Below, piece by piece: positions 6,196-33,803 of a stretch of DNA of 64,000 nucleotides. A model generated the notes under the pieces. The model was not told the origin of the DNA and made no database searches. It saw only the letters and a list, made by a program, of their open reading frames with translations. This stretch comes from an uncultured Methanosarcinales archaeon (GTDB lineage: Archaea > Nanobdellota > Nanobdellia > Woesearchaeales > JABMPP01). Each line of letters starts with the position of its first letter. The stretch's first letter is position 1. A program made the position numbers and the translations under genes. The stretch is taken from the NCBI GenBank assembly GCA_964604995.1, contig CAZSAD010000005.1, forward strand, positions 3,221-67,220, written 5' to 3'.

Positions 6196-6218
6196 TTAAC
6201 AAACTCGAAAAAAAGAAA

Positions 6219-18200: not shown

Positions 18201-21200
18201 TCAGGAGAATTAAATTTATTCACATCAAAAAATAATTATCTACAACAAGAGTCAATAATACTAACTAGTAATTCAAAAATAGAAAATACTGGTTTAATCC
18301 CAATTACCGGCTATTTATCTGCTAATATCGAGCAATTTAACATTTATTATCAAATAAACGAAGAAACTGATAAAAAGAAAATTGGGAATGAATACAATTT
18401 CTTAGAACTTGGAGAGGCAATTAATGCAACTGGTCAGACAATATTCTCATCAAATGATTTAAATGCACTTTCAAATGAAACTTTCCAAAATTCTCTTGGA
18501 ACATTTACATATACTCAAAAATTAGAATTACCTTCTGCAAAAGTTGTTTTTGAAGAAGATACTGATCAATCAAATGATCCAAGCTTATACTTAAAATTCG
18601 ATGCAAATAAACCAGCATACACCTACACTTTGCAATTTACTCCTCCAATTGAAAGCGGAATCATAAATCAAACTCTTAAAGATCTACAAGGACATAATTT
18701 GCAATTATTTGACAAAACTTTTCAAATAATTTCTGCAAAAAATGAAAGTAACAAATTATCCTTAAATTTATTACAAACAGAATTAGTTGATATCTTACAA
18801 GAAGGCTCAACAAAAACTTATACTCACAATGGAAAAGACTACCAAGTAACAGCAAGTTACATCTCAAGTAGCGAAGCAAGGTTTACAATAAATGGTGAGA
18901 CAACTGATAAATTATCGGAAGGAGAAACTTACACTTTAGTCGATGGAACAAGAATTGGTGTTTTTGATATAATAACTAATTTTATTGGGGAAAATTTATC
19001 AAATAATTTTGTTCAATTTGGTTTAGGAGTAAATAACTTAAAAATAACTGATTACAATCCTTCAACAGCTAATTGGGATGCAAAAGTAGCTGATGGCAAT
19101 GAAGATTTAATGAATTTAAAAGCAGATATTATAGTTACAAGTTTTTCAAATGGTATTACTAAAATAAAAGAATTAAAATTTAAATATCTTCCTTCAACAG
19201 ATCTGCATGTACCAATTAGTGGAAAATTAAGCACAATAGCAGAGTATGAAGAAAGTGAACTAGGAAATGTTCTTGTCAATGGTTTTGATGTTCAATTAAA
19301 AGGATTTAATGAAACTCAATTAAATTGGGAAGCAATAAAAATCTTTAGCAGTTCAAGTCTTAGTTATAATTTAATATTTAGAAATAGAAATGGACAAACA
19401 TATAACATTCCTGTTTGGGGATACGATAATTCATCTAGAAAAATTAAACTAGGTTATAGGGATGATTATTCATTTAAAAATTTAATAATAAATGAAGCAA
19501 TACCTATCTTAACTAATGAATATTTTATATTAAGCCCATCCTCAACACAAAAAACACACATCTTCCAATTCAATAGTGTAAACACAAATGATAACACTTT
19601 CAAAATAAAAGATTTAATGGAAGGTGGTTCAACAATAGAAGTAACTAATGCAACATCTTTTGTTGTTGATGGAACAGCATATTATGCTTATTATAATGGT
19701 TCAGGAAGTGATGCAAAGATTTATGTTGATTTAAATGGCGATGGAATAATTCAACAAGGTCAAAAAGTAGACAAAATATATACCTTTTATTCTGGAAGCG
19801 ATGGATATTTGCAGCTTATTCAAAATAATATTTCAACAAATGCCTCAGGAATTTTTGTAACACAAAAAACTCAAAACCTGCCTCAAAATAATTTCCAAGA
19901 AAAAATAAAATGGAAATTTTATTTTAATTACACTTCAAATAAAATAATGCTTGATAGTCCCATCAATGATTTTGGATCTTATGATTCAATGAAAAAATTA
20001 GATTCACTAGACAAATATGTTGGTCTAACTTACTATGGCGCTTATGGCGACTATGATTATGGAAATGCACAAAGTCCATTATTAGAATTCCAATATCCCA
20101 ATCAACAATTAGAAATACTTGTTTATGTTATGGGTAATAATTATCCTACACCTCAAGCAATTTCAAGTTGGCAACATTATAGCACTATTATAGATGAAAA
20201 CTTTTCAAGAACAGTTCCTGCAAATAATGTCCAAGCATTAGATACTATTTGGAACAATTATAATGTTTCAATTAATGATCCTGGAAAATACAGAGTTCAT
20301 GCAGAGTTTAGATATGAATATGGTGGAGAGCCAATTCAAACAACAACTGGCCTTCTAGAAAATGTTTGGGAGTTTAATGTTAGTGGAACATCATCACAAT
20401 ATCAAATGCAAATAACCTATCCACAAAATAATTCCATAATACTTAGTAGTTCTACTCAAGTATTAGTAACTACAAATACTCCTTCTTCTTGCGATTATTC
20501 ATACATGGTAGTTTCTTCAAATGGTGTAGGTGTGGGCTCACCAACTATATTTATGTCAACAACAGATGCATATCATTTTTCTGCAACAATTAATAATTTA
20601 CTCTATGGTGATAATGTTACAGTTCATGCATATTGCTATTCTAATGAGGGTAATGTTTATGCAACCTCTTCAGTATTTTTTAGAGTTCAAATTTCTTCGC
20701 AATGTGGAAATAATTTATGTGAAGGCAATGAAACAGTGCAAAGCTGTCCAATTGATTGTAGGGAAGTAAACTATCCAGAATACTGCCCACAATATAACAA
20801 AGCAAATAATGATAATAGTAACCATGGACCAGGGGGAAACTTGGGAAATTCTTTATCACTTTCTACAAAAACAAATTTTGATACATTAAGTGAAGAAACT
20901 TTAAAGAAAATTATTATTCAAGGTGATATTCAAAAATTTAAATCATTAAAACTTTCAGTGCAAATGATAAGTCCTGGAATTTTTAGTGTAACTTCTAAAA
21001 ATCAAAGAATCGATGTAATGCAGCAAAAACTGCCTGAAATAGCAACACTAATGGATAGCAATGGAAATAAATTTGTTGTAAATCTTGCTGTAGTTTTTAA
21101 TGAGCAATATGCAAATGGTTACATTGTTGAGTTTGAAGGATTGTCATTAGTTGAATACAAAAAACAACTTGAATTAAATATCAAAGATATGCAAACCAAA

Positions 21201-23366
21201 GCAAATTCTCTAAAACAAAAAATTGATTCTAGAACTGGAATATCTAAAATACTAAATTTAGTAGATAGCCCAAGATTATCAATAGCTAAAAATTCAATAA
21301 ACACTGCAGAATTACAATTACCAAAAGAAATTTCTAAACATAAAGGGGAATTAAATACTAATGTCAATTCATTTAGAAAATCAGTTAGTAAAATAGATAA
21401 TTCTCTTGATGAAACAACAAAAATAAAAAAACAATATCAAACAGTATTTAATGGGGCATTCTTAGAAACTGATGCTAAAACTGCAATGAAAATTGCAGAA
21501 TTAAAAGGTGTTAAATCAATCAAAGCAAATAAAAAAGTTAATGTTGTATTAAATGAAAGTTCAAAAGTTATCAATGCAGATGATGTATGGCAAACAATTG
21601 ATGACAATGGTTATAACATAACAGGATTTGGTGTTAAAGTTGCAGTTATTGATACAGGTGTTGATTACACTCATCCTGATTTAGGCGGATGCTTTGGACA
21701 AGGTTGCAAAGTTGAAGTAGGATATGATTTTATCAATAATGACAATGACCCAATGGATGATCAGGGTCATGGCACACACGTTGCAGCAACAATAGCTGGA
21801 ATTAACACAATTCTAAAAGGCATTGCTCCTGATGCAAAAATATATGCTTACAAAGTTCTTGATAGCAGTGGTTCAGGCGGATCAGACGGTATAATTTCTG
21901 CAATGGAATACTGCGCTGATCCAAATCAAGATGGTAATTTTTCTGATCATGTTGATATTGCATCTTTAAGTTTAGGAGGCAATGGAGATCCTGATGACCC
22001 CATGTCTCAAGCAGTAGACGGTGCAACAGATGCAGGTGTATTATTGGTAATTGCAGCTGGAAATTCAGGACCAGATGTAGGAAGTGTTGAAAGTCCAGGA
22101 ACTGCAAGAAAGGCTTTAACAGTTGCTGCATCAAATAAATGCGATGAACTTGCAGGATTTAGTTCAAGAGGTCCAGTTGTTTGGAATAATGGCACGCTTC
22201 TAAAACCAGATATAATGGCACCAGGTGTTTCAATTTGCGCAGCGCAGTATGATTCTTGGTTTAGTGATAGAAGATGTTTAGATAATGAACATATTGCAAT
22301 CTCGGGCACAAGTATGGCAACTCCGCATGTTTCAGGTGTTGCAGCATTATTAAAACAAAAATATCCTAATTTATCTCCTACAGAATTAAAATCTTTATTG
22401 AAGCAAACTAGCTATAATCTTGGTTACACACTATTCGAGCAAGGAAATGGAAGGTTAGATGCAAAAAGAGCAATAGAAGCAAAATTAATTGTTACACCCA
22501 ATTCATTCTCTGATGATTTTACTGAAAAAACACAAGCAACCTGGACTTTAAATATTAAAAATATTTTTAATAATTCTGTATTAGTAACTATAAAATATCC
22601 AAATCCAAAAATCCTAAATTTAGCTGATGTTACTCCAACAACTTCAATCAATATTACAATTATTGGTCCAACATCTTTAAATTTAGATGCTAATTCAATA
22701 CAAAGCTTTGATGTAAATATTACCTCCTTGCCAAGTGATTTTGAAGGATATCTTTTAGGTGAAATCCAAATTTCAGATGGCAGCAATATTTATTCAGTGC
22801 CTTATCTAATCTCTAGTTTTTCTAAATTGGTAGTGTATGTTAATAAAAATGAGATAATGAAACAGTATTCAATTTTTGCTTATCGTGATGATTTTGGCTG
22901 GGCTAGCAGTATTTCTAGTAGTGATGAAATAGCGAATGGTGTTCACAAATTCAATAGGATGCTTTCTGGAAATTATTCAGTTGCAATTGCAGGCGATTTA
23001 GAAGATTGGAATAATGAATATCTTTTGTTTGGAAGAGCACATGTTCCAATGAAAGGAACTGGTGAGACCTTAATTAGTTTTGATGATGCAAGACCCTTTA
23101 CAATCAAAGCAAGATCTCTAAATAATACTCCTTTATTTTTAGTGCAGTCTGAAAAAAGATTTGAGTATAGGCTTGCAGACGGACAAGGCGTTACTTACAC
23201 AATGTCTGATCCAATTATTGGTGATAGAAAAGTTTACATCACTAATAAACCTGAATCCGGGCCAGATTTAAACATTATATTGGATTATATTGGTGTACCT
23301 TATTTGGAATCAGAAATTTCCAATAACTATCAAAAATTATTGAATGAAAATTCATTAGCAAAATAA
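6219..23366 (+). CDS. Giant (about 5716 aa) secreted multi-domain protein with three complete subtilisin-like (S8) serine protease modules
   Basis: Signal peptide MKLKQILIIVILILFSSIILLS at ATG 6219 (the track's 6180 start is TTG). TSP3-like DSDSDGVLDEDDLCPD; PEGA-like domain (~6720-6930); PKD-like domain (YDPEGMPLTYTWLIE..., ~7190-7440). S8 #1 ~10830-12420: I9-like propeptide FNGIALDITDAEAQQLK; VIDTGVDYTHPDLGG; HGTHVAAT; GTSMATPHVSGASALL; PA-like insert. FG-GAP-like repeats (DFNHDGNKEILVGG, DFDNDGNLELVIGD, DINNDGKIDLVVAS) ~12780-13960. S8 #2 ~14590-16330: IIDTGVDYNHEDL; GHGTHCSGIAAG; GTSMATPYVAGIAGLL; PA insert GKIVLIKRGDISFHDKVENVYNKGAIGVIIYNN. Parallel beta-helix region ~16700-17600. S8 #3 ~21430-22470: VAVIDTGVDYTHPDLGGCFGQGC; GHGTHVAAT; GTSMATPHVSGVAALL. 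Confidence 0.85.
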   Translation: MKLKQILIIVILILFSSIILLSNTKNSSARILDSDSDGVLDEDDLCPDTSFFAPVDFNGCSCDQKSVNNTCVPDNNECTGYCGGPKAQCNYPLTGDLLNQGLISCNATYCENNIVHTFPQTMSSKYCVDGNLFNRTSCQETLSYLKDCGKIPLPINQTINLTNQTNQTIQLGYLIIESNPSSADIYLNNIYQNKTPRNFELKSGTYRLNLIKEDYIPYSSNIKINSGQLTDLFINLNPEIINPSTFTCNDTDGGIYFETFGKVALCKYSNSTIDYCLNYSDTCGLAENGKTLTEFYCQNSQVKNMTTVCSGPCKYGACSQQSNLLPVAVISRPMLGDLTYVNEPIYFSGIKSYDPEGMPLTYTWLIENTKSFNVTTTHTFLTTGIKFATLIVSDGTYVVNTSISLNIQEKINGTNQTNETNTSLCTLKTALWSTLAAYEGDNISLFVYGPNCQNKQLNITIWRRDFWLDEYIDSIPYQSSNSLGLFNASWKVIWKNSGWNLFDNTKYYFVAQIKNSEEKIISPENLDVKKSSSNNILITEPGNYKLQMNWYDTSGRTWLSVGDGVFGKLLQAAKNGDLYVDVIIEKNFAINDKLLLTDGTNNIEVLNYSRIKLLRPTTAKNPLLNDSLNDSFQTIVRIYLNTPIQNNYLLNAIVRQYSLDYSGNLQNLNDTIDLGYLQYGATPITSHLTQWISIFNGYNRTIFPVVYSNDSNYYYVNQLNSSKWDLTFDDGVRFDFPYNDGNFQIVKSNTIPSSPSFDVELYGASIHYVDFLNPSRNFTFWLKNNIQENNSPYLGFVYGLTNTSDEWISGEFGVIYYKGIPYNITIKRSDDYTLPVNLTISKGTTSVSYLLYQKQLTFPLFDGLAFYIQSWPVGYNLTILSVGKLVYNLNFTVPVIQYGETKKINGTLPAVAPGFYLVMFDASHQNDIAPWNNFQNPTYYVQKQYIDLAVNIPPYDYLIETNTTTKFNFTISNLGTIDAKNSTITINKTSNNYNFGNNTQIIKIPLPIIHPLETLNFSFNYTSENPEEFYFKIKVQTENDTDNGNNYVYSYVNSVLAGFNLYVMSAERKYPTPSEEGFVTLHTENLGSRPSSQFTAYHTNIKALQSFTTWINQNYSTEIEGVIYNITLLEVVKTQEYSTLGKAKFKLNYNNGTEIFELFAGETIELSTGKFFGLISTPNTFYAYSLIGNLRYVNSFTVPPIPIKSNWVKINITLKNDTLGNYYSFISFYHANDTSLEDNFAVVSYTINPDGPNIRTFSDWYYYTTTINETIPIPFTLENIGNRYSGDVNFRINISDKSQFDPNFNSTLLSEFTLPGLYPGETSSYSYNFTWQKSGKYFLFMQANISNDTNPYNNLHYVTIMVVKNTTNVSAELTLSTLKDNYEIGEIINLTDPPAIINSKATLSPIQFSNSITGNAINLPTEQFTNFDDTSMFYQTRKNYPTNYTNKTLEYNGYIVKFKKEPITKQKVNLENEIIKQKQITQTLSLTNNNQIAASKPNQQNSLLLTASDKLQVNTKLIAYQAEIQSEHSLAKIDISQKLSKSLTSKITGEFTKTFNGIALDITDAEAQQLKSSFYVEEVYPNYKVYATLMDSVPLIGADKVWQINSYGTPCIKYGGTEECLTGKGVTIAVIDTGVDYTHPDLGGCFGSGCKVAGGYDFVSNDNNPMDDNGHGTHVAATAAGNGTLKGVAPGATIYAYKVLNSGGSGSTNNIIAAIERSVDPNNDNDFTDHLDIISMSLGGSGTPDDPLSQAVDNAVDNGVIAVIAAGNSGQFNTPSIGSPGNSRKAITVGATYNKHSYNYYSEIKLNATVGGSMGDTDYFESIPVLGSMPTNANYQLHDWIYAGTGTISNFTSKNFTNKIALIYLDGVEYPEILLERAIASNAYAVIFYFNPYPNKITDYYFPLAYDIEIPSAVIATNDITTLFEYTQINQPISLYLNISLVTNITDADKVPYFSSQGPSFDEFYAIGIKPEIVAPGYDICAALTYNGVFPKYERACGQGHTPLSGTSMATPHVSGASALLKQAHPDWGNKEIKSALMVSSTSLGENPNIFGTGRINVTSALHPRIYLSEPTLNFGHIKFNDEKTITFTIKNLFPDQTIINLNFSSVDSNVQLIVSPNVVNLNPNEEKQVTVHLKYLHDEPSYLTPLTNYLTIQGDTNAKIPLLYYKTTNRSIVGFTQDPGEISSSLIPRFYTLKLNDINNDGYVEMLGGSSALFSFNNFENNISDYNILYAPPCIYDMYSEGCYPDTVESIAVEDFNHDGNKEILVGGVQGYLRLLEKNYNPKNLTKTIVSSENFTFGNYNFTTSINPYGQLIVSAKNVDNPLFITFFNLRISESEYDSEYGYIENIIFHLVSLQNGIAIVELQENEYKPTMLNKFREQLWAMDSADFNNDGWQDVVFSYSPLPFVYNVSILFNDGNGNLNNLYTIYNLYGNQISGLTVGDVDNNGFKDVIIGYSISPNSIYKTYGVTKLLKNNGNNKFYDSGVISTYGTGISGHPENDINPRVVLADFDNDGNLELVIGDNSGKIRILKKDNTGRYNEDLLINKGLLFDFGQLSWGVAASDINNDGKIDLVVASASRNDFYRFSLYTKLNNGNFTNFAPVRPKSQIINNGTINITGYLFMDVEQFLGNSWQGYQMVYEDTLPRTIPANNVQALDTIWNNYNISINNPGKYRVHAEFRDAYSGEPIQTTTGYLNNYWEFNVSGTIPTLPSAQLTLSTLKDNYETGEIINLTDPPTGEINTANVNRLVKNNEDSIALLNILEDAAAKSKQENKFSEGIIEQTPTFSNLPKYVKGELIVKLKNDISNKISANVVKTDISTLDSLNSKYGVKNIENVFPAKHESFFESLANNVKQTFNIEVPSRELNKVYKIKINQNTDVEKVVKEYSAVSEVEYAEPNYIYYTNFVPNDKLYSQQWSHQITSAEIAWDTEKGSSSTIIAIIDTGVDYNHEDLKTNIWHNPKEIPNNGIDDDNNGYVDDTIGYDFVDYQELVDYCNANPNICRISPREDYLKLDNDPMDVVGHGTHCSGIAAGVGNNNLGIIGICPSCSIMPVRAGMLIEINSNGQYYQSGGLSDDAIVNGIKYATDNGARVISMSFGGREYSQLQKDMIDYAYSKGVVLIAAAGNENTAEKPYPAGYDNVLSVGATDELDNKASYSNYGDWVDVAAPGSNILSTVPTKISYSSELKLGYSLFDSYPFEYSAIVEDESVHGMLANAGNGTIEELNNVNLTGKIVLIKRGDISFHDKVENVYNKGAIGVIIYNNAPGSFIGTLVNQSKIPAVSVSEVVGNSLLYYVNSSLINISIKVNKITENYELESGTSMATPYVAGIAGLLLSKEPSLKNSEVYAKIITGIDLIPDKTIGQGRVNVTKALQENPNSIITLENVNINANTEYNEINPGAAVDIYFTLKNIGANAGDVQGSIIIDNSYATVSEGNIDFGTMDTLAIRKNTAPFIIKINNNTPKGTKINVKLKLTSANSNYSPEFDVPIYTSKTIVVGKDNQSDYKNIGDAVKNANSGDIIFIKNGIYNETITIDKNNLKIIGESRDNTILSTNNSFGVALYIAAAKNVIIESITFEPNSQLNIYRGFSQEGILISGQSSILPSSNIKIRNSSFKNLDYAIDLNGPGYIENVTISNSTFIDNYEPLIRSISMGNKIIDVSFENNYVIINNLSKWIPDDSGGNAYAFFNDGLSSIDNFRIMGNHIIDNVSREPKNAVSFLHVFMLNFDVDTKDLNKNISNNIFEKTYPGNSSTAFILGGKNNYYMSNNKFVGNYQHLIYSLGSNVIIDGTKLQDNIGSEGDYTYSCYYFGPGSLLVSHSEIINGTLEIDSCSVNDKINYSVNSNRYSEYTGEDINGDGIGDTPQKIYDQNGNFITQDNTPLILFSGIKLTRPKSQIINNGTINITGYLFMDVEQFLGNSWQGYQMVYEDTLPRTIPANNVQALDTIWNNYNISINDPGKYRVHAEFRDAYGGEPIQTTTGLLNNYWEFNVSGTIPIIPSGELNLFTSKNNYLQQESIILTSNSKIENTGLIPITGYLSANIEQFNIYYQINEETDKKKIGNEYNFLELGEAINATGQTIFSSNDLNALSNETFQNSLGTFTYTQKLELPSAKVVFEEDTDQSNDPSLYLKFDANKPAYTYTLQFTPPIESGIINQTLKDLQGHNLQLFDKTFQIISAKNESNKLSLNLLQTELVDILQEGSTKTYTHNGKDYQVTASYISSSEARFTINGETTDKLSEGETYTLVDGTRIGVFDIITNFIGENLSNNFVQFGLGVNNLKITDYNPSTANWDAKVADGNEDLMNLKADIIVTSFSNGITKIKELKFKYLPSTDLHVPISGKLSTIAEYEESELGNVLVNGFDVQLKGFNETQLNWEAIKIFSSSSLSYNLIFRNRNGQTYNIPVWGYDNSSRKIKLGYRDDYSFKNLIINEAIPILTNEYFILSPSSTQKTHIFQFNSVNTNDNTFKIKDLMEGGSTIEVTNATSFVVDGTAYYAYYNGSGSDAKIYVDLNGDGIIQQGQKVDKIYTFYSGSDGYLQLIQNNISTNASGIFVTQKTQNLPQNNFQEKIKWKFYFNYTSNKIMLDSPINDFGSYDSMKKLDSLDKYVGLTYYGAYGDYDYGNAQSPLLEFQYPNQQLEILVYVMGNNYPTPQAISSWQHYSTIIDENFSRTVPANNVQALDTIWNNYNVSINDPGKYRVHAEFRYEYGGEPIQTTTGLLENVWEFNVSGTSSQYQMQITYPQNNSIILSSSTQVLVTTNTPSSCDYSYMVVSSNGVGVGSPTIFMSTTDAYHFSATINNLLYGDNVTVHAYCYSNEGNVYATSSVFFRVQISSQCGNNLCEGNETVQSCPIDCREVNYPEYCPQYNKANNDNSNHGPGGNLGNSLSLSTKTNFDTLSEETLKKIIIQGDIQKFKSLKLSVQMISPGIFSVTSKNQRIDVMQQKLPEIATLMDSNGNKFVVNLAVVFNEQYANGYIVEFEGLSLVEYKKQLELNIKDMQTKANSLKQKIDSRTGISKILNLVDSPRLSIAKNSINTAELQLPKEISKHKGELNTNVNSFRKSVSKIDNSLDETTKIKKQYQTVFNGAFLETDAKTAMKIAELKGVKSIKANKKVNVVLNESSKVINADDVWQTIDDNGYNITGFGVKVAVIDTGVDYTHPDLGGCFGQGCKVEVGYDFINNDNDPMDDQGHGTHVAATIAGINTILKGIAPDAKIYAYKVLDSSGSGGSDGIISAMEYCADPNQDGNFSDHVDIASLSLGGNGDPDDPMSQAVDGATDAGVLLVIAAGNSGPDVGSVESPGTARKALTVAASNKCDELAGFSSRGPVVWNNGTLLKPDIMAPGVSICAAQYDSWFSDRRCLDNEHIAISGTSMATPHVSGVAALLKQKYPNLSPTELKSLLKQTSYNLGYTLFEQGNGRLDAKRAIEAKLIVTPNSFSDDFTEKTQATWTLNIKNIFNNSVLVTIKYPNPKILNLADVTPTTSINITIIGPTSLNLDANSIQSFDVNITSLPSDFEGYLLGEIQISDGSNIYSVPYLISSFSKLVVYVNKNEIMKQYSIFAYRDDFGWASSISSSDEIANGVHKFNRMLSGNYSVAIAGDLEDWNNEYLLFGRAHVPMKGTGETLISFDDARPFTIKARSLNNTPLFLVQSEKRFEYRLADGQGVTYTMSDPIIGDRKVYITNKPESGPDLNIILDYIGVPYLESEISNNYQKLLNENSLAK
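14025..14340 (+). repeat. Intragenic repeat R1 (~315 nt, ~95% identical to R2)
   Basis: cgtccaaaatcacaaataataaacaatggaacaataaatataactgg... through ...gttagtggaacaattcca; encodes RPKSQIINNGTINITGYLFMDVEQFLGNSWQGYQMVYEDTLPRTIPANNVQALDTIWNNYNISIN.PGKYRVHAEFRDAY.GEPIQTTTG.LNNYWEFNVSGTIP. Confidence 0.85.
17878..18193 (+). repeat. Intragenic repeat R2, copy of R1 with about 8 substitutions
   Basis: Direct read-by-eye alignment with 14025-14340. Identity is lost on both sides (ttaact|cgtcca upstream, ccaataattcca downstream). Confidence 0.85.
20204..20390 (+). repeat. Intragenic repeat R3, partial third copy (~190 nt) mosaic between R1 and R2
   Basis: agaacagttcctgcaaataatgtccaagcattagatac...gttagtggaaca. 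At the variable positions it carries R1-type and R2-type bases alternately. Confidence 0.8.
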
Positions 23367-23396: not shown

Positions 23397-26300
23397 ATGA
23401 AACAAAGCAAAACAAAAATCAGTAGCAAAAATAACAAACTGAAAATAATTAATAATCAAATTTTCATTTTATTATTCATATCTTTATCACTTATTTTCTT
23501 AACTGGTTGCCCATCAGGCGAGGGGATTTATGAAACATCAACAGAAGAATATAATGCAGGCTGGGTTTTGCATAATATTAATGATTCAACATCAACAACT
23601 CTTGAATATAATTCTTCAGAATTAATGATTTATAATGCTTCATTTAATTTTCCAGCAGATAGCCCATTAGATTATGCACATTCTTCATTTTGGATGTACC
23701 CTTATAACGCTAAAGATGATCCAATATTTCTTACTTCAATAGTTTCATTTCCAGTACCCTCAAAAAGAACATATTATTATTACGGTTCAACAGGTGGAGT
23801 CAATTATGATTCTACTTGGGGTACTTTAGAAGATACTTACATAACTTATGAGTATTCTTTTGAACAAGATGAAACACCTTGGGAATTTAAACAAACAGAA
23901 CAAATATTTGGTTATAATTATTATTATACTGCAAGAAAAGTTGTAGAAAAGCAATATGGTATTGCACCATATAAAATTGCAAATTTTGCAGGAAATAGCT
24001 ATAGTTTTTGGGTAGAAGGAAAACTTATTAAAAATCAATTATTGGAAAATCCAGCATATTTAAACAAAGCTTCGCAAGTAGGATTTCCTATTCCTACTCT
24101 AAAAATATCACACAACGGTAATATTACATTAGAGCGAAATTTAGCACAGTATTATCCTCCACCTGACAATGTTTATTCGTGGAATTATTACAATGGCTAT
24201 TTTTATTTTTGGGGGATAAATAATTCGGGTATATATCAAGCAGATATGATTATCCCTACATATTATCCAATTTGGAGCAATGTTGAGCAAACTGTTCAAT
24301 TTTTACTCGAGCAAGATTCAAATAATAATGACCAACTGGCACTTATGTCAAAAATTCCAAAACTTGAATTTTTTTATGTTTCTCCTTATTTTACTTCAGG
24401 TGAAACAATTTTTGTAGTAATCAATTTTTCAAATGAAGTAAATATATCCGCTGTGCAACTTCAATTTTCAACAGATGATATAAATTATGAAACTGTTGTT
24501 TTATCTGGAAACAATAATTATTATTACGCAAATTATACAGCTCCATTTTATGCAGAAAAACTTGATTCATATATTTTCGCAACAACCTATCAAGGATATA
24601 ATTATACTTTAAAAATTGAAAATGTGGCACTTAAAAAAGTGCAGCCAATTATAACAATAACTGGTCCAGATTCTGTTAGCTTATTAGATGAAACAAATTA
24701 TTATGTAGACTGCGAATACACTTTTAAAAATGAACAAAAAAAATGTAATTATGCATTGTTAAATTTAAATCTAAATAATGTGCCAATAAAAAAATATTTC
24801 CCATCTTACAATAATCTAACTACTTTTTCTTTGAAAATTCCAATTAACGCTACTAATAATTTTACACTTTCTTCTTGGTTCGAAGGTAGTGGGAATTTAC
24901 TTGGTGCACAAAGTCAAAATTACCCTGTATCTATTCAAAGGTATGATCATGATTTAAAAATGATTAATTATAAAGTACATTCAAAAATTGTAAACCAAAA
25001 CAATACAATTACTGCAACTATTGCAAATATTGGTATAAATCCAGAATATAATGTTCCAGTAATTTTAGCACCTGAATCAAAATACGGACCAAATGGATTT
25101 TATAGTATATCACATATCCCAGTTATTAATCCTAGAGAAATTGTTGAAGTAAACCTTACATTCATTCCAACTTATAGTGATACTATTTATTTAAATTTAA
25201 CTGTTAATGCATTACTTGATACTAATATTTTCAACAATAACATTTCACTCGAAATCAACCCCAAATTCAATGGGAGCAATATCTATCCGAGAATTAACTA
25301 TCTTGTAAATCCTTTAATTATAAATGTCCCTAATCAAATAAGATTAGATATCCCAAATTCAGGATTGAAAACAGCAACAAATGTTTCATACAAATTTTAC
25401 ATATTTGATTTTATTTCTCCTGATGTTATGTTTGAAGGAACTACTAATTGGAATTATAATAATGTAAATTACTTAATTAATTTATCTTCACCTACACTTA
25501 ATACACATCATGTCACTATAAAATACAATAATCTTATTATTTCAAAACAATTATTTGATAAGGAAGTTCTTGAACTAGACAATAATATTTGCTTTGTAAT
25601 ATATGAAATGTTCAATGATTCAACTATTAACTTTTACCATATTCAATTTAAAGAGTGTATAGTAACTAATTCAAATTTACAGGATATTATTCCAACCTTG
25701 GACAGACAGCCTGTTTATTCTACACTAGTTAATTATACCCCTACTAAAGTTGGATTTTACACATCTTATGTCTCTTTAATTAATAATGAAGAATATTTAT
25801 TGGATAATTTCGATGCTACCTCTTTCCAAGTTACAAAGTCAGGTTATGATTTAAATATTCATTCTTACTTTCAAATACCTCCAACTATCCAATCTAACAG
25901 TAATTTAACTGTTAGGGTTCGGAATGATGGAAATTTAAAATCTCCCCCTAATACTACTACAAAAATCAGGGACGTAATAAATATTAATTCTTGGGATATA
26001 ATAACAAGTACTACTAAAACTATTTTTTATGAGGGGATTACTTATCAAATTACAATCATCCCCCATGTAGAAATTCCATATTTCTTTTCAATCAACATCT
26101 CTTATCTTAATATCACTGAAAATTTTGATTTATACATATCACAAAGTTATAAACTTAACAATTCAGTTATTTTCGCAATTAGTTACTCTTTTAATAGTTC
26201 TTGGTTTGAAATTATATTTGGTAAAGAACATTTCTCTAAAGAGTTTTTAGTTCCTGAAATAAAACCTGGGGGTTATATTGAAACGCAAATTGAAATTCCA

Positions 26301-29300
26301 AACAATACTTATTTTGAACATAGGTTGTTTTCTGAAGTTTTTTCTGATGGAGATAGGGATTTATATAACAACTTTAAATCAAATTGGTATCTAATGGATC
26401 TTCACAATCCTGATATTGCAATTGAGTTAAATTCAAATTTCCCAAATAATTTGCTTGTCAATGAAATAGCATATCTTAATTTTTCTATTAAAAATTATAA
26501 ACAATACAATGCAACAGATATATGGATTACTGTAAATCTAACAAATTCTAATAATATGGGAGAAAAAACAACAACTCTATTTCAAACACATTTAAATTCT
26601 TTAGAAGGATATAGTTCTATTCATTATTTATTTAATTTTACACCAACAGATGTTGGGTATTATCAACTTGATATATTTGCTGAATTAGAAAATGATGATC
26701 ATTTTTATAACAATTATATAAACCTTAATTTCGAAAGCAAAAGAAATGAATCTTACTTACGGTCATATCTTAATATTGAACCATTCTATGATTTATTCCT
26801 TTTAGATACTAATAATTCTATTGATGTGAAACTGAATAATTATGGATTTTTAGAAGTTAAAAATGTTTCAATGGTTCTTTACTTAGATAATAATTTAATA
26901 ATTAATGAGTCAAACATTTACATTGCATCATTTGGTTCCTATTTTTATAATTCTAATTTTATACCAACGCAAAAAAAAGAATATCACTTAAGCTTGCAAA
27001 TTTTTGACAATACTAATAACAGTAATTTGATATATGATTATTGGCAATTTGTTCCAGCAGTTAGACAAATTTCGACTCAAATGCAAATAACTGATATGCA
27101 AGAAAATCCTCAAACAAGATATATTGCAACAAGGCAAGGGGAACTCGGATTTTTCAATGGAACTGCAAATATAAACGTATTAGATGAAATGGAGCATTTT
27201 TCATCTTATTTTGTTGATGAAGAAAGTGAAGAATATTTTGGATTTATGACTCGTTATTCCTATTTTAATGAAACTGAAGAATTAAAAACTCAACTACTTT
27301 GGAATATTGAATCTAATAATTTACATGCTGATTTAATATATTTAAATTACCCAAGCTGGCAATATAGTCAATCTGAAATTAAGTTGATTATCAATCTAAT
27401 TAAACATCCAATAAATACTAATTACTTAAGACTTTTTGGATGCACATTATACAATTTTGAAAATAATTCTTGTTTATCAAATTGGGAAGAAATCAATGGT
27501 GACAATATCAATTTAGATAATAATAACCTTTATGTTAATTCTTGGTTTAACAATTATAAAGCAATAGCTCTTGGTAAAAAGATAACTGGTTCTAGTTATG
27601 ACTTAAATATCAATTCTCATTTTTCAATAATCCCAACTATTCAATCTAATAGTAATTTAACTATTGGAATTTGGAATAATGGTGGTCTAAACTCTCCAGA
27701 TACTACTGCAAAAATTAGAGACGTAATGGATATTAATTCTTGGAGTATAATGGTAAATATCACCCAAGAGTTTTTTTATGATGGAATTACTTATCAATTT
27801 ACAATTACTCCTAACGCAGAAAATTCGAATTTATTTTCAATTAACATTTCTTATCTTAATATCACTGAAACTTTTAGTTTATATCCGCTACAAAATTATA
27901 AACTTAACAATTCAGTTATTTTTGCAATTAAATATTATTTTGGTTACTCTTGGCTTGAAATTATGTTAGGTAAAGAACATTTTTACAAAGAATTTTTATT
28001 ACCTGAAATAAATCCGCAAAGCTACTTTGAAACACAAATTGAAGTTCCAAGTAGCAATAAAATTGAACACATGTTATTTTCTGATGTCTTTTTGGAAGGA
28101 GATGTATATGCTCCTGATAATTTTAATATAAATACTTATCAAGTAGAAACCTTTTATCCAGATGTTGCAATTGAACCAGATCAAAGTTTCCCAAATAATT
28201 TGCTTGTCAATGAAACTGCATATCTTAATTTTTCTGTTAAAAATTATAGAAGTTACAATGCATTTGATATTAAAATTATTGTAAACTTAACAAATTTTGG
28301 GAAGATGGAACAAGAAACAACAACTATATTTAGTGCATACTTAAATTCTTTAGAGGGGTATGGTACTATTCCTTACTTAATCAATTTTACTCCACAAAAT
28401 CTAGGATATTATCAACTTGACATATTTGCTGAATTAGAAAATGATACCTATTTTTACAATAACCACGCAAACCTTTATTTTAGAAGCATGGAAAATGAAT
28501 CTAATTTAAATGTAAATTTTAACATTGAACCTTACTATGATTTATTCATTTTAGATAATAACAACCGTATCAATATAATTCTAGATAATTACGCATTTTT
28601 AGAATTAAAAAATGTTTCAATGATTCTTTATTTAGATAATAATCCAATACTTAATGAGTCAAATATTTACATTACATCATTTGGTTCTTTATTTTATAAT
28701 TACAATTTCACCCCAACGCAAAAAAAAGAATATAATTTAAGTTTACAAATTTTTGACAACACTAATCAGAGTAATTTAATATATAATTATAATCAACTTG
28801 TTCCTGCAGCTAAACAAATTTCAACACAAATACAAATAAGTGATATGCAAGAAAATCCACAAAAAAGATATATTGTAACAAGGCAAGGGGAATTAGGATT
28901 TTTCAATGGAACTGCAAATATAAATATATTAGATGAATACGAGCATTTTTCATCTTATCTTGTTAATGAAGAAGATGAAGAATACTTTGGATTCATGACT
29001 CGTTATTCTTATTTTAATGAAACTGAAAAGTTAACAACACAACTTCTTTGGAATGTTGATTCTGACAATTTACATGCTGATTTAATATACTTAAATTCTC
29101 CAAGTTGGCAATATGAACAATCTGAAATTAAATTTGTTATCAATCTAAATCAACATTCTATTAACACGAATAACGTAACTGTTTTTGGATGTAATAATTA
29201 TATTTATCAAAACAATTCTTGTCTATCAAATTGGGAAGAGATTAATAATGGAGGTGTTATTTTAGATAATAATAACCTTTATGTTAATGCTTGGTTTAAC

Positions 29301-32300
29301 AATTATAAAGCAATAGCTCTTGGTAAAATCATATCTATTGTCCCTACTTCTTCAAATACAAAATTACAAAGCAAATATTCACCAAAAGAAGCATTTTTAA
29401 TCTCAGATAAGAATTGGCAAGATGTTTTAAGTTTAGTTCCACTAACAACCTGGACTGGAAATGAACAAGATACAAATTGGTGCCAAAAAGGAACAGGAAC
29501 ACCAGAAAGCGTTTGTGTTTATCCAACACTTATTTATCATGAAGAAGAATCAAAACCAATCCCACTTATCCCTTATCAGCATTTCAGCTTTGATGTTCAA
29601 GGAGAAGGGAACATGACGCAGTACCTTGCTAATGATTCAGGTATTTTGGTACCTGTAAACACTTCTATACCTGATTGGGTATTTAACCTTGTATTTCCAA
29701 GAACTATCCTTAGTCAAAATATCAACATAACACCAAATGCAACTTATACTATTAATTTTTCATTATCTTCTCCTTCAATGGTTTATGCAAATATACATAA
29801 TTTTACAATATATTATCCTTCATTCCTTATTCCAGAAAACGATACTTTTTTTGTTGTTAATCAAACTTTTTATCCTGGGCAAAAACTTATTTACCAAGTT
29901 ACTTTCAAATCAAATGTTGGGATACCTTTTGATGCAGATTCTTTAATTCATTTTTTGCAGGATTATCAGCCATCCGAAATCAAGTTGATAGGGGATTCTC
30001 CTCCATCTCTGGATGATCTTTTAATCACTCCAGCACCAATCGGTGCAGGACTAAGCTCTTCACAGATTACAAGAATAAATATTTCAGATATTTTTTCTGC
30101 ATGGCAGAATTTTAAAGAATTGGTTTATGTTGAAGACAATTATGGGACAGCAATGGTTGCTTCAACTTATGCTTCACTTATCAATGCACCTCTAGTTGTA
30201 AAAAATTCACAGTTGGATTTTCCAAATATTTTTGTAAACAAAGATGTAATTTGTATTGGTAATGTTACCCCTCTAATTGGGATATGTACTGAATTATATA
30301 ATTCAACACAACTTAATTTTAAGATAGCTCAAATAACACAATCAGATAAATTGATGGTTACTAATCCAAATGATATCAATAAAAAAGTTAATAATTTTTT
30401 CACCCCCGATAAGTCATCGACACCAATAAATGAATTATATTCAAAAAATTCTTTGGCTGCACCAATACTTGCTAGTGCAAAGCACGAAATCTTGGTTCCT
30501 GTGACTTCAGAAAAAGTGAACGAAATAAAAAATATCGTCAAAAATAGTGTTGTGCAGTTCATGCCCGAAATAATCAATAACCCCTCTGGAATTTTAGACA
30601 ACAATTTTGACAATCCAATTTGGCAGATAATAAAAGAAAATATTGGTGATGGAAACAAAGAGATTATTAATAAAAATACTATGGCTTATACCCCCGATTT
30701 TATACCTTCTGACGACAAAATTGCTTGGAGGAGAGATAGTAACCACCTTTTTGTTTATGATCTTTCTAATACAAATCTGAAAACAGTTAGTTTTGCGTCT
30801 TTTCCAGGATATTTAAGCAGCTTCAATATTAAAGGAGATAAACTGGTTTCAAGTATAATTGATTTTGGGAATAATCTTGTTTATTGTAGATTAATATTAA
30901 CAGATTTGGGTAATCCAGGTTCATCAACACTTGTTTTTTCAGGAAATAAAGATTCATGCACTTATTATGATAATTCATTTGATATCACTGAAGATTATAT
31001 TTATTTTACTAAGATGACAACAGTTGATTATTCCAAAGACAGTGTAATTATGAGATATTCTATAAACACCTATTCCACACAAGAAGTATTCAAAGCATCA
31101 TCCCACAATATTTACAGCATCAGGACATTATTTGCAGATGATAATCTCTTGTTTATTTTGGCTTATACTAATTCAGGCAGTGAAATTTTTATGTTTAATA
31201 TGACAGATAACACTACGAGAACTATTACAACGACTTTTTATGATATCCTGGATATGTTTTATGTATCAGGAAAGATTGTGTGGTCTCAAGGTTATGATTA
31301 TAATACTCCTTTATATTCCTTGCGTGTTTATAATATCTTAACAAACCAAACAACTTTGATTACGGATTCATTGAGGATGAATGGTGGCAATGGTGTTGTA
31401 TCATCCCCAAAAAGCTTGAATAATATTGTAACTTATGTAGTTGATAATGAAACTGCAAATAAGCAATGTGAAATGACTAAATTATCCTGCTCAACTTTAT
31501 CTCCTTGTAATAATTATTGCACTAATGATCATTCTTATTGCAGTAGCAATTTGGATTGTGATGGTAATGATTGCATGACTGACCAGTGCATACCAACAGA
31601 TTATTACGCTTATAACATTTCAAGTGCACAATCTAAATTAATATCTTCAGGAAAAATCATGGCTTCTCCATTGTTTGACGGGGATTACCTTTATTATGGC
31701 AATAAGTTAATGGGCACATACACTATTGACGGCTACTTTACAGTAATAGGTTCAAATATATCGATCCCTTACAAAGAAGATATGGATCCTGGTGCAATGT
31801 ATGATAATTTTAAATATCTTGATGCATCTGATTATGCAGATATTTATAATGAAGATATGCATCCGGACATGGCAGTTGGCAGAATACAAGGTATAACTTC
31901 AACTGATGTTGCTTCATACATTGCAAGGGATATTTTCTTATCTCACAGTTTAAGACTCGCCTCTGCTAAAATGCTTGCATCTTCTTTTGATTATGAAATA
32001 CATACTGCAGAAAACTGGACTCAAACATTTAATTATTCCAGATACAATGCAACATGCAATATTTTACCAACAGCAACTTCAGGAACAGATTTCAACTGTA
32101 AGATTGAAGAAAATACTACCCTTTGGCCAAATGAATACAAAAATAAAGGTTTGGTGCAATATTTGGATCATGGTGCACCAAATTGGGCAGGAATTAATTC
32201 CAATCAAATCCCTTATTTATCAAACACATTACTATTCAATGATGCATGTTCAACATGTTCAACTTATGATGACCAATCATTTTGTAGTAATGCAATTCGC

Positions 32301-32528
32301 AGAGGAGCATTATTACATGCTGGTGCAGCTTCTATTGCATGGACAGGGAATAATGTTTATATGAACATGGTAAATGGTATTTATTACGACAATCTTACTT
32401 TAGGCCAGGCATTTTCAAAAAGCTTTGAATATAATTATTATAGGTATATGACTATGATTTTAGGAGACCCGACATTAAATATAAACGCACAGCCTGAAAT
32501 AATCAGCCCGCTAGAGCAACAATGGTAA
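23397..32528 (+). CDS. Giant (3043 aa) secreted protein with a tandem ~584-aa module duplication and a C-terminal gingipain-like (C25, clan CD) cysteine-peptidase domain
   Basis: Signal peptide with a lipobox-like LTGC. Modules at 25838-27590 and 27591-29343 (SGYDLNIHSYFQIPPTIQSNSNL... vs SSYDLNINSHFSIIPTIQSNSNL...). C-terminal YLDHGAPNWAGINSNQIPYLSNTLLFNDACSTCS resembles the gingipain His/Cys dyad region GHGSETAWG...NSNQLPFIFDVACVNG. Putative His codon at 32169-32171, Cys codon at 32247-32249. Confidence 0.8.
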   Translation: MKQSKTKISSKNNKLKIINNQIFILLFISLSLIFLTGCPSGEGIYETSTEEYNAGWVLHNINDSTSTTLEYNSSELMIYNASFNFPADSPLDYAHSSFWMYPYNAKDDPIFLTSIVSFPVPSKRTYYYYGSTGGVNYDSTWGTLEDTYITYEYSFEQDETPWEFKQTEQIFGYNYYYTARKVVEKQYGIAPYKIANFAGNSYSFWVEGKLIKNQLLENPAYLNKASQVGFPIPTLKISHNGNITLERNLAQYYPPPDNVYSWNYYNGYFYFWGINNSGIYQADMIIPTYYPIWSNVEQTVQFLLEQDSNNNDQLALMSKIPKLEFFYVSPYFTSGETIFVVINFSNEVNISAVQLQFSTDDINYETVVLSGNNNYYYANYTAPFYAEKLDSYIFATTYQGYNYTLKIENVALKKVQPIITITGPDSVSLLDETNYYVDCEYTFKNEQKKCNYALLNLNLNNVPIKKYFPSYNNLTTFSLKIPINATNNFTLSSWFEGSGNLLGAQSQNYPVSIQRYDHDLKMINYKVHSKIVNQNNTITATIANIGINPEYNVPVILAPESKYGPNGFYSISHIPVINPREIVEVNLTFIPTYSDTIYLNLTVNALLDTNIFNNNISLEINPKFNGSNIYPRINYLVNPLIINVPNQIRLDIPNSGLKTATNVSYKFYIFDFISPDVMFEGTTNWNYNNVNYLINLSSPTLNTHHVTIKYNNLIISKQLFDKEVLELDNNICFVIYEMFNDSTINFYHIQFKECIVTNSNLQDIIPTLDRQPVYSTLVNYTPTKVGFYTSYVSLINNEEYLLDNFDATSFQVTKSGYDLNIHSYFQIPPTIQSNSNLTVRVRNDGNLKSPPNTTTKIRDVININSWDIITSTTKTIFYEGITYQITIIPHVEIPYFFSINISYLNITENFDLYISQSYKLNNSVIFAISYSFNSSWFEIIFGKEHFSKEFLVPEIKPGGYIETQIEIPNNTYFEHRLFSEVFSDGDRDLYNNFKSNWYLMDLHNPDIAIELNSNFPNNLLVNEIAYLNFSIKNYKQYNATDIWITVNLTNSNNMGEKTTTLFQTHLNSLEGYSSIHYLFNFTPTDVGYYQLDIFAELENDDHFYNNYINLNFESKRNESYLRSYLNIEPFYDLFLLDTNNSIDVKLNNYGFLEVKNVSMVLYLDNNLIINESNIYIASFGSYFYNSNFIPTQKKEYHLSLQIFDNTNNSNLIYDYWQFVPAVRQISTQMQITDMQENPQTRYIATRQGELGFFNGTANINVLDEMEHFSSYFVDEESEEYFGFMTRYSYFNETEELKTQLLWNIESNNLHADLIYLNYPSWQYSQSEIKLIINLIKHPINTNYLRLFGCTLYNFENNSCLSNWEEINGDNINLDNNNLYVNSWFNNYKAIALGKKITGSSYDLNINSHFSIIPTIQSNSNLTIGIWNNGGLNSPDTTAKIRDVMDINSWSIMVNITQEFFYDGITYQFTITPNAENSNLFSINISYLNITETFSLYPLQNYKLNNSVIFAIKYYFGYSWLEIMLGKEHFYKEFLLPEINPQSYFETQIEVPSSNKIEHMLFSDVFLEGDVYAPDNFNINTYQVETFYPDVAIEPDQSFPNNLLVNETAYLNFSVKNYRSYNAFDIKIIVNLTNFGKMEQETTTIFSAYLNSLEGYGTIPYLINFTPQNLGYYQLDIFAELENDTYFYNNHANLYFRSMENESNLNVNFNIEPYYDLFILDNNNRINIILDNYAFLELKNVSMILYLDNNPILNESNIYITSFGSLFYNYNFTPTQKKEYNLSLQIFDNTNQSNLIYNYNQLVPAAKQISTQIQISDMQENPQKRYIVTRQGELGFFNGTANINILDEYEHFSSYLVNEEDEEYFGFMTRYSYFNETEKLTTQLLWNVDSDNLHADLIYLNSPSWQYEQSEIKFVINLNQHSINTNNVTVFGCNNYIYQNNSCLSNWEEINNGGVILDNNNLYVNAWFNNYKAIALGKIISIVPTSSNTKLQSKYSPKEAFLISDKNWQDVLSLVPLTTWTGNEQDTNWCQKGTGTPESVCVYPTLIYHEEESKPIPLIPYQHFSFDVQGEGNMTQYLANDSGILVPVNTSIPDWVFNLVFPRTILSQNINITPNATYTINFSLSSPSMVYANIHNFTIYYPSFLIPENDTFFVVNQTFYPGQKLIYQVTFKSNVGIPFDADSLIHFLQDYQPSEIKLIGDSPPSLDDLLITPAPIGAGLSSSQITRINISDIFSAWQNFKELVYVEDNYGTAMVASTYASLINAPLVVKNSQLDFPNIFVNKDVICIGNVTPLIGICTELYNSTQLNFKIAQITQSDKLMVTNPNDINKKVNNFFTPDKSSTPINELYSKNSLAAPILASAKHEILVPVTSEKVNEIKNIVKNSVVQFMPEIINNPSGILDNNFDNPIWQIIKENIGDGNKEIINKNTMAYTPDFIPSDDKIAWRRDSNHLFVYDLSNTNLKTVSFASFPGYLSSFNIKGDKLVSSIIDFGNNLVYCRLILTDLGNPGSSTLVFSGNKDSCTYYDNSFDITEDYIYFTKMTTVDYSKDSVIMRYSINTYSTQEVFKASSHNIYSIRTLFADDNLLFILAYTNSGSEIFMFNMTDNTTRTITTTFYDILDMFYVSGKIVWSQGYDYNTPLYSLRVYNILTNQTTLITDSLRMNGGNGVVSSPKSLNNIVTYVVDNETANKQCEMTKLSCSTLSPCNNYCTNDHSYCSSNLDCDGNDCMTDQCIPTDYYAYNISSAQSKLISSGKIMASPLFDGDYLYYGNKLMGTYTIDGYFTVIGSNISIPYKEDMDPGAMYDNFKYLDASDYADIYNEDMHPDMAVGRIQGITSTDVASYIARDIFLSHSLRLASAKMLASSFDYEIHTAENWTQTFNYSRYNATCNILPTATSGTDFNCKIEENTTLWPNEYKNKGLVQYLDHGAPNWAGINSNQIPYLSNTLLFNDACSTCSTYDDQSFCSNAIRRGALLHAGAASIAWTGNNVYMNMVNGIYYDNLTLGQAFSKSFEYNYYRYMTMILGDPTLNINAQPEIISPLEQQW
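25838..29343 (+). repeat. Tandem duplication of a ~1750-nt (~584 aa) coding module in two diverged copies
   Basis: Protein-level collinearity across the whole module. Identical DNA islands include ttggtttaacaattataaagcaatagctcttggtaaaa at 27543-27580 and 29291-29328, aaacttaacaattcagttatttt, and ccaacgcaaaaaaaagaatat. Confidence 0.8.
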
Positions 32529-32564: not shown

Positions 32565-33803
32565 ATGCCAGCGAAAACAAAAATCCGGAAAGTGAAAAAT
32601 CTGAATTATTTAAAAATTTCAATATTTTTAGTGCTATTTCTTTTCTCATTACTTGAAACAAAAAGCATTGAAATTCCAAAGATTGCATTAAATATTCAGG
32701 ACTCTTTTGTAAAAAATGACATTATAAATTTTAATTACACAATTTCTTTAGTTGGTAATAACAAGGAACCTTTACAGATTGCATATTTTACTTCGGTGAA
32801 GTGTCCAAATGCACCCCAAGGGCTTATAGAATTGAAAAATGCAATATTAACAAACAACAATAGTGTTACAGGAACTCATTTGGATTTCAAAGTCAGTAGT
32901 AGTATTACACAGCAAGCATGTAACGCATCAGTTACAATAATGCAGCCATTTTCCTTTAGCCAATATAAATCGTTTGATATAATTACAGACCCATTGATTT
33001 TTTTATACATTTCAACTGATAAAAAAGTATATTTTATGACCGAAGAAATAATTATAAAATCAACGATAAATGTGTTTCCAGATGATGTTCGTTCTTCAAT
33101 TATATTTCCCGATGGTACAAAAAAAGATATAACTTTACCATATAAATTTAAGCCAGATCAAGCAGGAACTTATACAGTTTTTGTTTCTGCATCCAAATCT
33201 AGTTATGAATCTTCAGAGGCCCATTATTCATTTGCAGTAATTGCCAAGCAAGCACAGTTCAAATCAGCATCACAATGTAATTCAAACAACATTTGCGACC
33301 AAGGTGAAACAACTCAAAATTGTCCGCAAGATTGCGCATCAAAATCAATTGTAACAAAATCAACTACTACAATTTCAACTACAACAAATACTAAAGATGC
33401 AACTGAAAAACCATCACCCTTACTTATTACACCTAAAGAAAACAAACCAAGTGAAATTAAATCAATTAATCCTCAATCAAATGGAATAATTTATGCATTA
33501 TTTATTGGAATTGCTGTTTTCATTTTACTTTTCTTAATTGTTGAAACTAAAAGAAAATCACTTTCTTTTGATAGATTGCATGAACTCGCAAAAGAAAATA
33601 AAGTTCATACAGTTCATATTGAATTAGATAAATTAGTTAATTATATTTTTGCAGCAAGAAAATATGGTTTTCCAGATACGGAAATACAAAAAAAATTAAC
33701 TGATTTAGGTTGGATTGGAAAAGATATTGATAATGCTTTTATTGAAGCAGACAGTCAAAAAGAAGAAGCAGAAGAAATTGATGCTAATAAACAAATGCCT
33801 TAA
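32565..33803 (+). CDS. Type-I membrane protein (412 aa) carrying a 4-Cys mini-module shared with the upstream giant
   Basis: Signal peptide, then an ectodomain with QCNSNNICDQGETTQNCPQDC, a Thr/Ser-rich stalk, TM helix IIYALFIGIAVFILLFLIV and a short cytoplasmic tail. 37 nt downstream of giant 2 on the same strand. Confidence 0.6.
   Translation: MPAKTKIRKVKNLNYLKISIFLVLFLFSLLETKSIEIPKIALNIQDSFVKNDIINFNYTISLVGNNKEPLQIAYFTSVKCPNAPQGLIELKNAILTNNNSVTGTHLDFKVSSSITQQACNASVTIMQPFSFSQYKSFDIITDPLIFLYISTDKKVYFMTEEIIIKSTINVFPDDVRSSIIFPDGTKKDITLPYKFKPDQAGTYTVFVSASKSSYESSEAHYSFAVIAKQAQFKSASQCNSNNICDQGETTQNCPQDCASKSIVTKSTTTISTTTNTKDATEKPSPLLITPKENKPSEIKSINPQSNGIIYALFIGIAVFILLFLIVETKRKSLSFDRLHELAKENKVHTVHIELDKLVNYIFAARKYGFPDTEIQKKLTDLGWIGKDIDNAFIEADSQKEEAEEIDANKQMP

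Follow-up and report, generated by a model that had tools for sequence, protein, structure and literature searches.

The C25 gene and its neighbours

We analysed a stretch of 64,000 nucleotides (nt; hereafter the window) from an archaeon deposited as an uncultured Methanosarcinales archaeon and placed by GTDB in the Woesearchaeales (assembly GCA_964604995.1, contig CAZSAD010000005.1, positions 3,221 to 67,220 of the forward strand; ~29% G+C across the window). The open reading frame list and the translation delineate a gene at 23397..32528 (+ strand) for a putative surface protein of 3043 amino acids (aa), which bears a protease domain of peptidase family C25 at its end. It is flanked on the same strand by two further genes: upstream, a giant gene (6180..23366, +), whose 5728-aa product contains several subtilase (S8) domains by Pfam, and downstream, a gene for a 412-aa protein (32565..33803, +), termed here the partner, a homologue of which directly follows the C25 gene in six related loci from metagenome-assembled genomes (MAGs). 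Only 30 nt separate the stop codon of the upstream giant gene from the C25 gene, and 36 nt separate the latter from the partner gene. The C25 gene locus is present in three public metagenome assemblies.

Sequence evidence for the C25 domain

The catalytic (C-terminal, caspase-like) subdomain of peptidase C25 spans aa 2775-3043 and runs to the protein end (31719..32525, +). When the last 383 aa (aa 2661-3043) were scanned in isolation, they matched Pfam Peptidase_C25 (PF01364) at E=1.9e-8 with 34.4 bits, above the gathering score of 23. The match covers profile positions ~100-373 of 374, and positions 1-~97 are unmatched in the window protein, in its family members and in the MAG orthologues alike. 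Of the 10 family members examined, 8 also exceed the threshold for this Pfam domain, as do all five MAG orthologues (5/5). A preliminary description, prepared from the letters of the window, had likened this region to the His/Cys dyad of gingipains (C25, clan CD). The motif quoted there maps to aa 2922-2955 (nt 32160-32261), and the positions it had given for the dyad, His2925 and Cys2951, prove exact. The predicted catalytic His2925 is encoded by the CAT codon at 32169..32171 (+) within a DHG motif, and the predicted catalytic Cys2951 by the TGT codon at 32247..32249 (+) within an ACSTC motif; these align, respectively, to His211 and Cys244 of the gingipain RgpB.

The alignment derives from a 38-sequence profile of the family, which, when searched against the sequences of all PDB chains, recovered gingipain R only (1cvr_A, E=1e-5; 4ief_B, E=1.3e-5). 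It places DHG on T-G-His211-G and ACSTC on V-A-Cys244-V, and further superimposes GRI on IGRF, GDPT on GDPS, and Trp2982 on Trp284 of the S1 lid. An NSNQ string between the two motifs, which the preliminary description had counted as a coincidence with gingipain, falls out of register in the profile alignment to RgpB. PDB sequence searches with the single domain, with a 5-sequence profile including flanks, or with a trimmed 5-sequence profile returned nothing.

The domain is easily overlooked. Scans of the whole protein against Pfam and NCBIfam reported CARDB alone, with no C25 match even at E<=1, and the same two collections likewise gave no C25 match at E<=1 for the last 643 aa. We suspect that composition correction or filtering in this Asn-rich sequence causes the loss. 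Since the match vanishes from the whole-protein scan, a routine scan of that type would miss the domain; and since it surfaces in the 383-aa piece and neither in the 643-aa piece nor in the 3043-aa whole, the annotation of Asn-rich giants varies with the way they are cut. With the last 343 aa as query, a word-indexed homology search retrieved five proteins, including an identical 383-aa fragment, and four of these five bear a precomputed PF01364 label.

Predicted structure of the catalytic subdomain

An AlphaFold2 model of aa 2773-3043 reached a mean predicted local distance difference test score (pLDDT) of 93.1 and a predicted template modelling score (pTM) of 0.92. Its best structural matches among 48,164 PDB chains are RgpB and Kgp, followed by separases, CHAT proteases, legumains, metacaspases and caspases, all of which are clan CD enzymes. 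Thus modelled, the subdomain is closest to the solved gingipains and is predicted to adopt an alpha/beta/alpha sandwich, with the His and the Cys at the C-terminal ends of adjacent central strands as in clan CD. In a Foldseek search against the PDB, the top 24 matches are all clan CD (separases and TPR-CHAT proteases), with procaspase-3 lower in the ranking. Separases (C50) and CHAT-domain proteases such as the clan CD TPR-CHAT of Craspase differ in several respects: they score lower than the gingipains in structural comparison, give no Pfam or sequence-profile match to the window protein, and are cytoplasmic regulatory proteases. A larger model of 1069 aa (aa 1975-3043; pLDDT 81.6, pTM 0.83) contains a conserved upstream module with an alpha/beta fold (pLDDT >90), a large all-beta insert (pLDDT 75-90) and a Cys-rich stretch that is disordered or uncertain.

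Both checks envisaged in the preliminary description thus gave a positive result, namely the Pfam match to C25 and a high-confidence model of clan CD fold with RgpB and Kgp as its best matches. Taken with the profile alignment of both dyad residues, they support the C25, clan CD reading and establish that the 3043-aa protein is a member of the C25 family with a clan CD fold and an intact, conserved dyad. It is a member of that family and not a gingipain in the narrow sense, because the immunoglobulin-superfamily (IgSF) and C-terminal sorting domains are lacking, there is no prodomain-like Pfam match, and the host is archaeal.

A large family with a conserved dyad

An exhaustive profile search over 1.84 billion cluster representatives recovered at least 644 relatives (as cluster representatives) at E<=1e-3, with 207 remaining at the stricter E<=1e-30. 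Conservation was counted over 131 full-length domains out of the best 150 relatives. The catalytic His, the Cys and the Gly following the His are each retained in 129/131. A Gly-Arg pair (aa 2828-2829), Gly2970 and Gly3003 are invariant in the family domains, and a Gly-Asp-Pro triplet (aa 3023-3025) is nearly so. The domain occupies the extreme C-terminus in 88 of the 131; hence, the terminal position that the preliminary description considered unusual is indeed so relative to the gingipains but is the rule within its own subfamily. A scan of one genome per GTDB species identified six related loci, all from Nanoarchaeota or Woesearchaeota MAGs, and the five complete orthologues that they encode are 915-1371 aa long. 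Near the N-terminus of two of these orthologues (L005:7451-10816 and L003:4327-8046) lies a dockerin type I domain, which hints at a cohesin-dockerin-like assembly in DPANN archaea.

The S1 residues of RgpB (Asp163, Gly210, Gly212, Gln282 and Trp284) define its Arg specificity rather than family membership. Of these, Gly212 is kept as Gly2926, and the Trp284 position is occupied by Trp2982, with an aromatic residue in 82/131 of the family. Gly210 is replaced by Asp2924, which lies beside the catalytic His and is Asp in 116/131. The residue preferred at P1 may, we infer, be basic.

A split protease unit with an additional module and two insertions

Upstream of the catalytic subdomain, the sequence is non-repetitive from aa ~1993, and BLAST comparisons with the family show conservation across aa ~1980-2052 and 2176-2400. 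This region is a conserved alpha/beta module of ~290 aa in two parts, the first at aa 1993-2052 (29373..29552, +; delineated by BLASTP against the family, with pLDDT 84-98 in the larger model) and the second at aa 2176-2392 (29922..30572, +). A hidden Markov model of the module detects it ahead of the domain in 111 of the 112 family members that extend far enough upstream. In 68 of these 111 it lies next to the catalytic subdomain (gap <=40 aa), whereas in 38, the window protein among them, the two are >150 aa apart. No relatives of the module were found in Pfam, its profile has no similarity to that of the catalytic subdomain, and a search against PDB sequences gave nothing meaningful, with weak scores for a designed TIM barrel and FlaH. 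A fold like cell-wall-binding repeat 2, suspected for the module from its sequence, found nothing in its support and was dropped.

Adding the upstream module to the model brings ~50 more residues into alignment with RgpB and Kgp. In these models, the gain points to the module's last unit (aa ~2316-2392; 30342..30572, +) as a match to part of the gingipain N-terminal subdomain (PMC4357240), and this last part probably plays the role of that subdomain, of which it is the likely equivalent.

Two insertions interrupt the protease unit. The first, a variable, beta-rich insert at aa 2053-2175 (29553..29921, +), lies where the BLAST alignments to most family members leave a gap and is modelled with low confidence (pLDDT ~40-60). 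In the relative P0050, an F5/8 type C (discoidin) domain (PF00754, aa 185-301) lies at the equivalent position. This site inside the conserved module is thus a second place of domain swapping besides the junction before the catalytic subdomain. At that junction, the window protein has an inserted beta-propeller (aa ~2399-2664; 30591..31388, +) between the N-subdomain-like unit and the catalytic subdomain. Between the propeller and the catalytic subdomain lies a Cys-rich segment with 8 Cys in 41 aa (aa 2691-2731; 31467..31589, +), recognised from its Cys positions and modelled at pLDDT <50. The Cys spacings are 6, 5, 3, 6, 5, 4 and 4 residues, and the segment may form a disulfide knot or provide a metal site.

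The putative anchor and the repetitive stalk

The N-terminus, as read from the translation, begins with a putative signal/anchor at aa 1-38 (23397..23510, +), comprising a basic stretch (MKQSKTKISSKNNKLKIINNQ), a hydrophobic stretch (IFILLFISLSLIFL) and a lipobox-like LTGC. A hydrophobic signal-like segment also begins the orthologues and many family members. It is followed by a CARDB (Ig-like, adhesion-type) domain at aa 519-604 (24951..25208, +; PF07705, E=8.4e-7, 29.6 bits against a gathering score of 22.7) and weaker CARDB-like repeats. These precede a beta-rich unit of ~585 aa that has recently been duplicated in tandem (aa ~792-1410 and ~1371-1995; 25770..29381, +), as detected by tile-against-protein BLASTP. 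The copies are 52-78% identical, with the identity climbing to 78% toward the 3' part of the duplication. Such high identity suggests that the stalk is still expanding. Clear repeats stop near aa 1995. The preliminary description spoke of about 2900 residues of repeat modules before the protease; this is overstated, as the non-repeat module (~1993-2392) and then the propeller and the Cys-rich segment (~2399-2770) follow from there on. Parts of the upstream 5728-aa protein weakly resemble these repeats.

The gene neighbourhood

The partner protein starts with a signal-like segment. Its ~220-aa ectodomain is beta-rich and includes two invariant Cys, and a C-terminal transmembrane helix leads into a cytoplasmic tail. 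A partner homologue lies immediately 3' of the C25 gene in 7/7 loci, namely the window and the six MAGs (L001:5438-6238, L002:10839-11642, L003:8048-8875, L004:1561-2352, L005:10807-11676 and L006:2815-3669; BLASTP E=2e-11 to 1e-28). No relatives of it were found in Pfam or among PDB sequences. The window version is longer than its MAG homologues, with a Ser/Thr-rich linker and a ~90-aa cytoplasmic tail.

The 5728-aa protein matches Peptidase_S8 with E=1e-62 in its first half and with E=2e-113, over three matched stretches, in its second half. Pfam further identifies Inhibitor_I9, PA, FG-GAP, CARDB, PEGA and PKD domains in it, along with a weak pectinesterase-like match. Its gene and the C25 gene are probably co-transcribed. 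The 5728-aa protein contains neither a DHG motif nor any similarity to C25, and no second copy of the C25 domain or of its upstream module was found within the window. In one of the MAG loci (L002), the C25 gene is preceded by a gene for a NosD/beta-helix protein. Genes downstream in the window encode NOG1, ribosomal protein S6e and eIF2-gamma and are archaeal, so the organism is an archaeon; it is a low-GC member of the DPANN, and the 3043-aa protein has its closest relatives in Nanoarchaeota and Woesearchaeota MAGs. No tRNA or Rfam features were found in the window.

A probable peptidase and the alternatives to it

We propose that the 3' end of the gene encodes a genuine C25 (gingipain-type, clan CD) cysteine protease, with His2925 as the catalytic histidine and Cys2951 as the nucleophile, and we assign this reading a probability of about 0.8. 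The protein would be exported, with its N-terminus tethering it to the cell surface or close by, and such anchoring would place the protease at the far end of a long stalk. From its N-terminus onward, it consists of the putative signal/lipobox-like anchor, ~2000 aa of beta-rich adhesin-like repeats and a terminal conserved protease unit. The latter comprises the ~290-aa alpha/beta module and then the caspase-like catalytic subdomain, split by two insertions, one a variable beta domain and the other the beta-propeller with the Cys-rich segment. The His/Cys dyad is predicted to cleave peptide bonds after one specific residue in the clan CD manner (PMC4357240). Together with the upstream multi-subtilase giant, the protease might serve to digest external proteins or to attack a host cell's surface layer. 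We regard a role as surface-displayed endopeptidase as the most likely one. Family membership, fold, the intact and conserved dyad, the architecture and the gene linkage are what the analysis shows; export, anchoring, enzymatic activity, specificity and biological target are what we infer on this basis.

Several observations weigh against this reading. The Pfam match is modest (34 bits) and is lost in scans of the full protein or of its last 643 aa. The S1 residue Asp163 of RgpB has no conserved counterpart, with aa 2865-2869 varying across the family, and the helper Glu152 of RgpB falls in an alignment gap; consequently, specificity, and possibly catalytic efficiency, cannot be deduced from the alignment. 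A gingipain-type prodomain and IgSF domain were not detected in the 3043-aa protein, which ends ~18 aa past the GDP motif and so has no room for the IgSF domain of gingipains. In the gingipains, the prodomain and the IgSF domain matter for folding and latency (PMC4357240). The domain arrangement comes from structure prediction, and the export/anchor role of the N-terminus is read off the sequence.

An alternative is that the C25 domain serves as a processing enzyme or transpeptidase, which cuts a specific site in its own polypeptide, in the subtilase giant or in the partner protein and might then join the fragment to an acceptor. Enzymes related to such a role include PorU as the sortase of type IX secretion, the family C13 GPI transamidase and legumain-type ligases. 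The strict linkage of the membrane-anchored partner gene in 7/7 loci suggests a dedicated substrate or docking partner, and PorU, itself of family C25, uses a sortase-like mechanism (PMC4560394). However, no recognisable sorting signal or acceptor system was found, and the multi-subtilase neighbour fits bulk proteolysis better. We regard a processing role as improbable.

Less probable still is that the domain has lost catalysis and acts as a pseudoprotease, a binding module of protease origin at the tip of an adhesin. The poor conservation at the positions of Asp163 and Glu152 would accord with this, as would the location at the end of a stalk and the presence nearby of binding-type domains: the propeller here, the discoidin domain in P0050 and the dockerins in L003 and L005. 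Yet pseudoproteases typically lose one residue of the dyad, whereas the His-Gly and Ala-Cys motifs are kept in 129/131 domains from clusters <50% identical, a pattern expected under selection for catalysis. Finally, a chance motif match in an Asn-/Ile-rich low-complexity protein, for which one could invoke the empty whole-protein scans, the empty single-sequence and small-profile PDB searches and the out-of-register NSNQ, is already refuted by the above-threshold Pfam matches of the isolated domain and 13 relatives and by the recovery of gingipain R as the sole PDB sequence match of the deeper profile.

Relationship to known systems

The gingipains RgpB and Kgp of Porphyromonas gingivalis (MEROPS C25, clan CD; PDB 1CVR, 4IEF, 4RBM) share with the 3043-aa protein the His-Gly and Ala-Cys dyad, the GR(I/F) and GDP motifs and an aromatic residue at the Trp284 position of the S1 lid. 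The ~50 further residues that superpose when the upstream module is included are consistent with a partial N-terminal subdomain. In both cases, a protease is combined with adhesin-type domains on an exported protein, export of the archaeal protein being predicted. There are also differences. Identity is only 14-18%, and the order is reversed, with the adhesin-like repeats first and the protease at the extreme C-terminus. Neither an N-terminal prodomain nor a post-catalytic IgSF domain nor a type IX secretion C-terminal domain was detected in the 3043-aa protein. Instead, it has the conserved ~290-aa alpha/beta module upstream and a propeller that splits the N-subdomain-like unit from the catalytic subdomain. 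In addition, Asp163 is not conserved, Asp2924 stands in place of Gly210, and the host is archaeal.

Among archaea, extracellular C25 peptidases have been reported, and found to be expressed, in the Thermoprofundales/MBG-D archaea of sediments (PMC6461988). Those enzymes resemble the present family in being archaeal, predicted to be extracellular and assigned to C25 by Pfam/MEROPS, but they belong to another phylum and are known from database assignments and transcriptomics. Their description draws no link to giant proteins, to the upstream module or to a partner gene. The SPEARE proteins of Nanohaloarchaeota, DPANN surface giants of 3,300-8,500 aa in which a protease domain is joined with many adhesion domains, have been proposed to act in host interaction, and the one studied was seen by proteomics (PMC6642349). 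They differ from the C25 protein in having serine proteases, a cytoplasmic restriction-endonuclease region and, in most cases, a C-terminal transmembrane anchor. Their closer analogue in the window is the upstream multi-subtilase protein, which is reminiscent of the SPEARE concept, in which one giant DPANN protein is both protease and adhesin.

The bare claim of an archaeal protein with a C25 domain is thus not new, given the reports from Thermoprofundales (PMC6461988) and the public precomputed Pfam labels on fragments of the family. What appears to be new is the architecture of the subfamily, with its extra module, its insertion hot-spot, its lack of prodomain and IgSF domain, its terminal position on very large proteins and its linked partner gene. 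In the literature on DPANN, Woesearchaeota or Nanoarchaeota in conjunction with gingipain or peptidase C25, we found no description of this family; one apparent match, in a paper on hami, concerns C25 lipids and not the peptidase. We therefore appear to be dealing with a large, previously undescribed subfamily, distinguished by an extra module and accompanied by a conserved partner gene.

Implications for DPANN archaea and the C25 family

The solved structures of C25 peptidases come almost entirely from Porphyromonas. The present work adds to the family a divergent archaeal branch that differs in architecture, and it offers a practical lesson, in that the domain was missed by whole-protein Pfam scans in an Asn-rich giant.

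We also advance, as a tentative and rather doubtful proposal taken as a whole, that these components constitute a DPANN-specific 'split gingipain' attack cassette with three linked parts, which would breach or remodel the host surface layer in episymbiosis. Its first part would be the C25 subdomains, split by an insertion hot-spot that accommodates interchangeable recognition or gating domains and mounted on an N-terminally anchored giant stalk; by analogy, the beta-propeller inserted in the window protein might resemble those that gate substrates in the tricorn and S9 peptidases. As the second part, the downstream membrane protein might supply the Ig-like domain of gingipains in trans, or else dock or restrain the protease. 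The neighbouring multi-subtilase giant protein would be the third.

DPANN archaea live attached to other cells. To our knowledge, how they open or exploit the surface of their hosts is largely unknown, and few of their giant surface proteins have a recognisable enzymatic part. Such giant surface proteins are the main candidates for this role, and here a widespread family of at least 644 clusters ends in a protease domain whose conserved dyad is intact, thereby providing testable targets in the form of one catalytic Cys, one partner protein and relatives free of the inserts.

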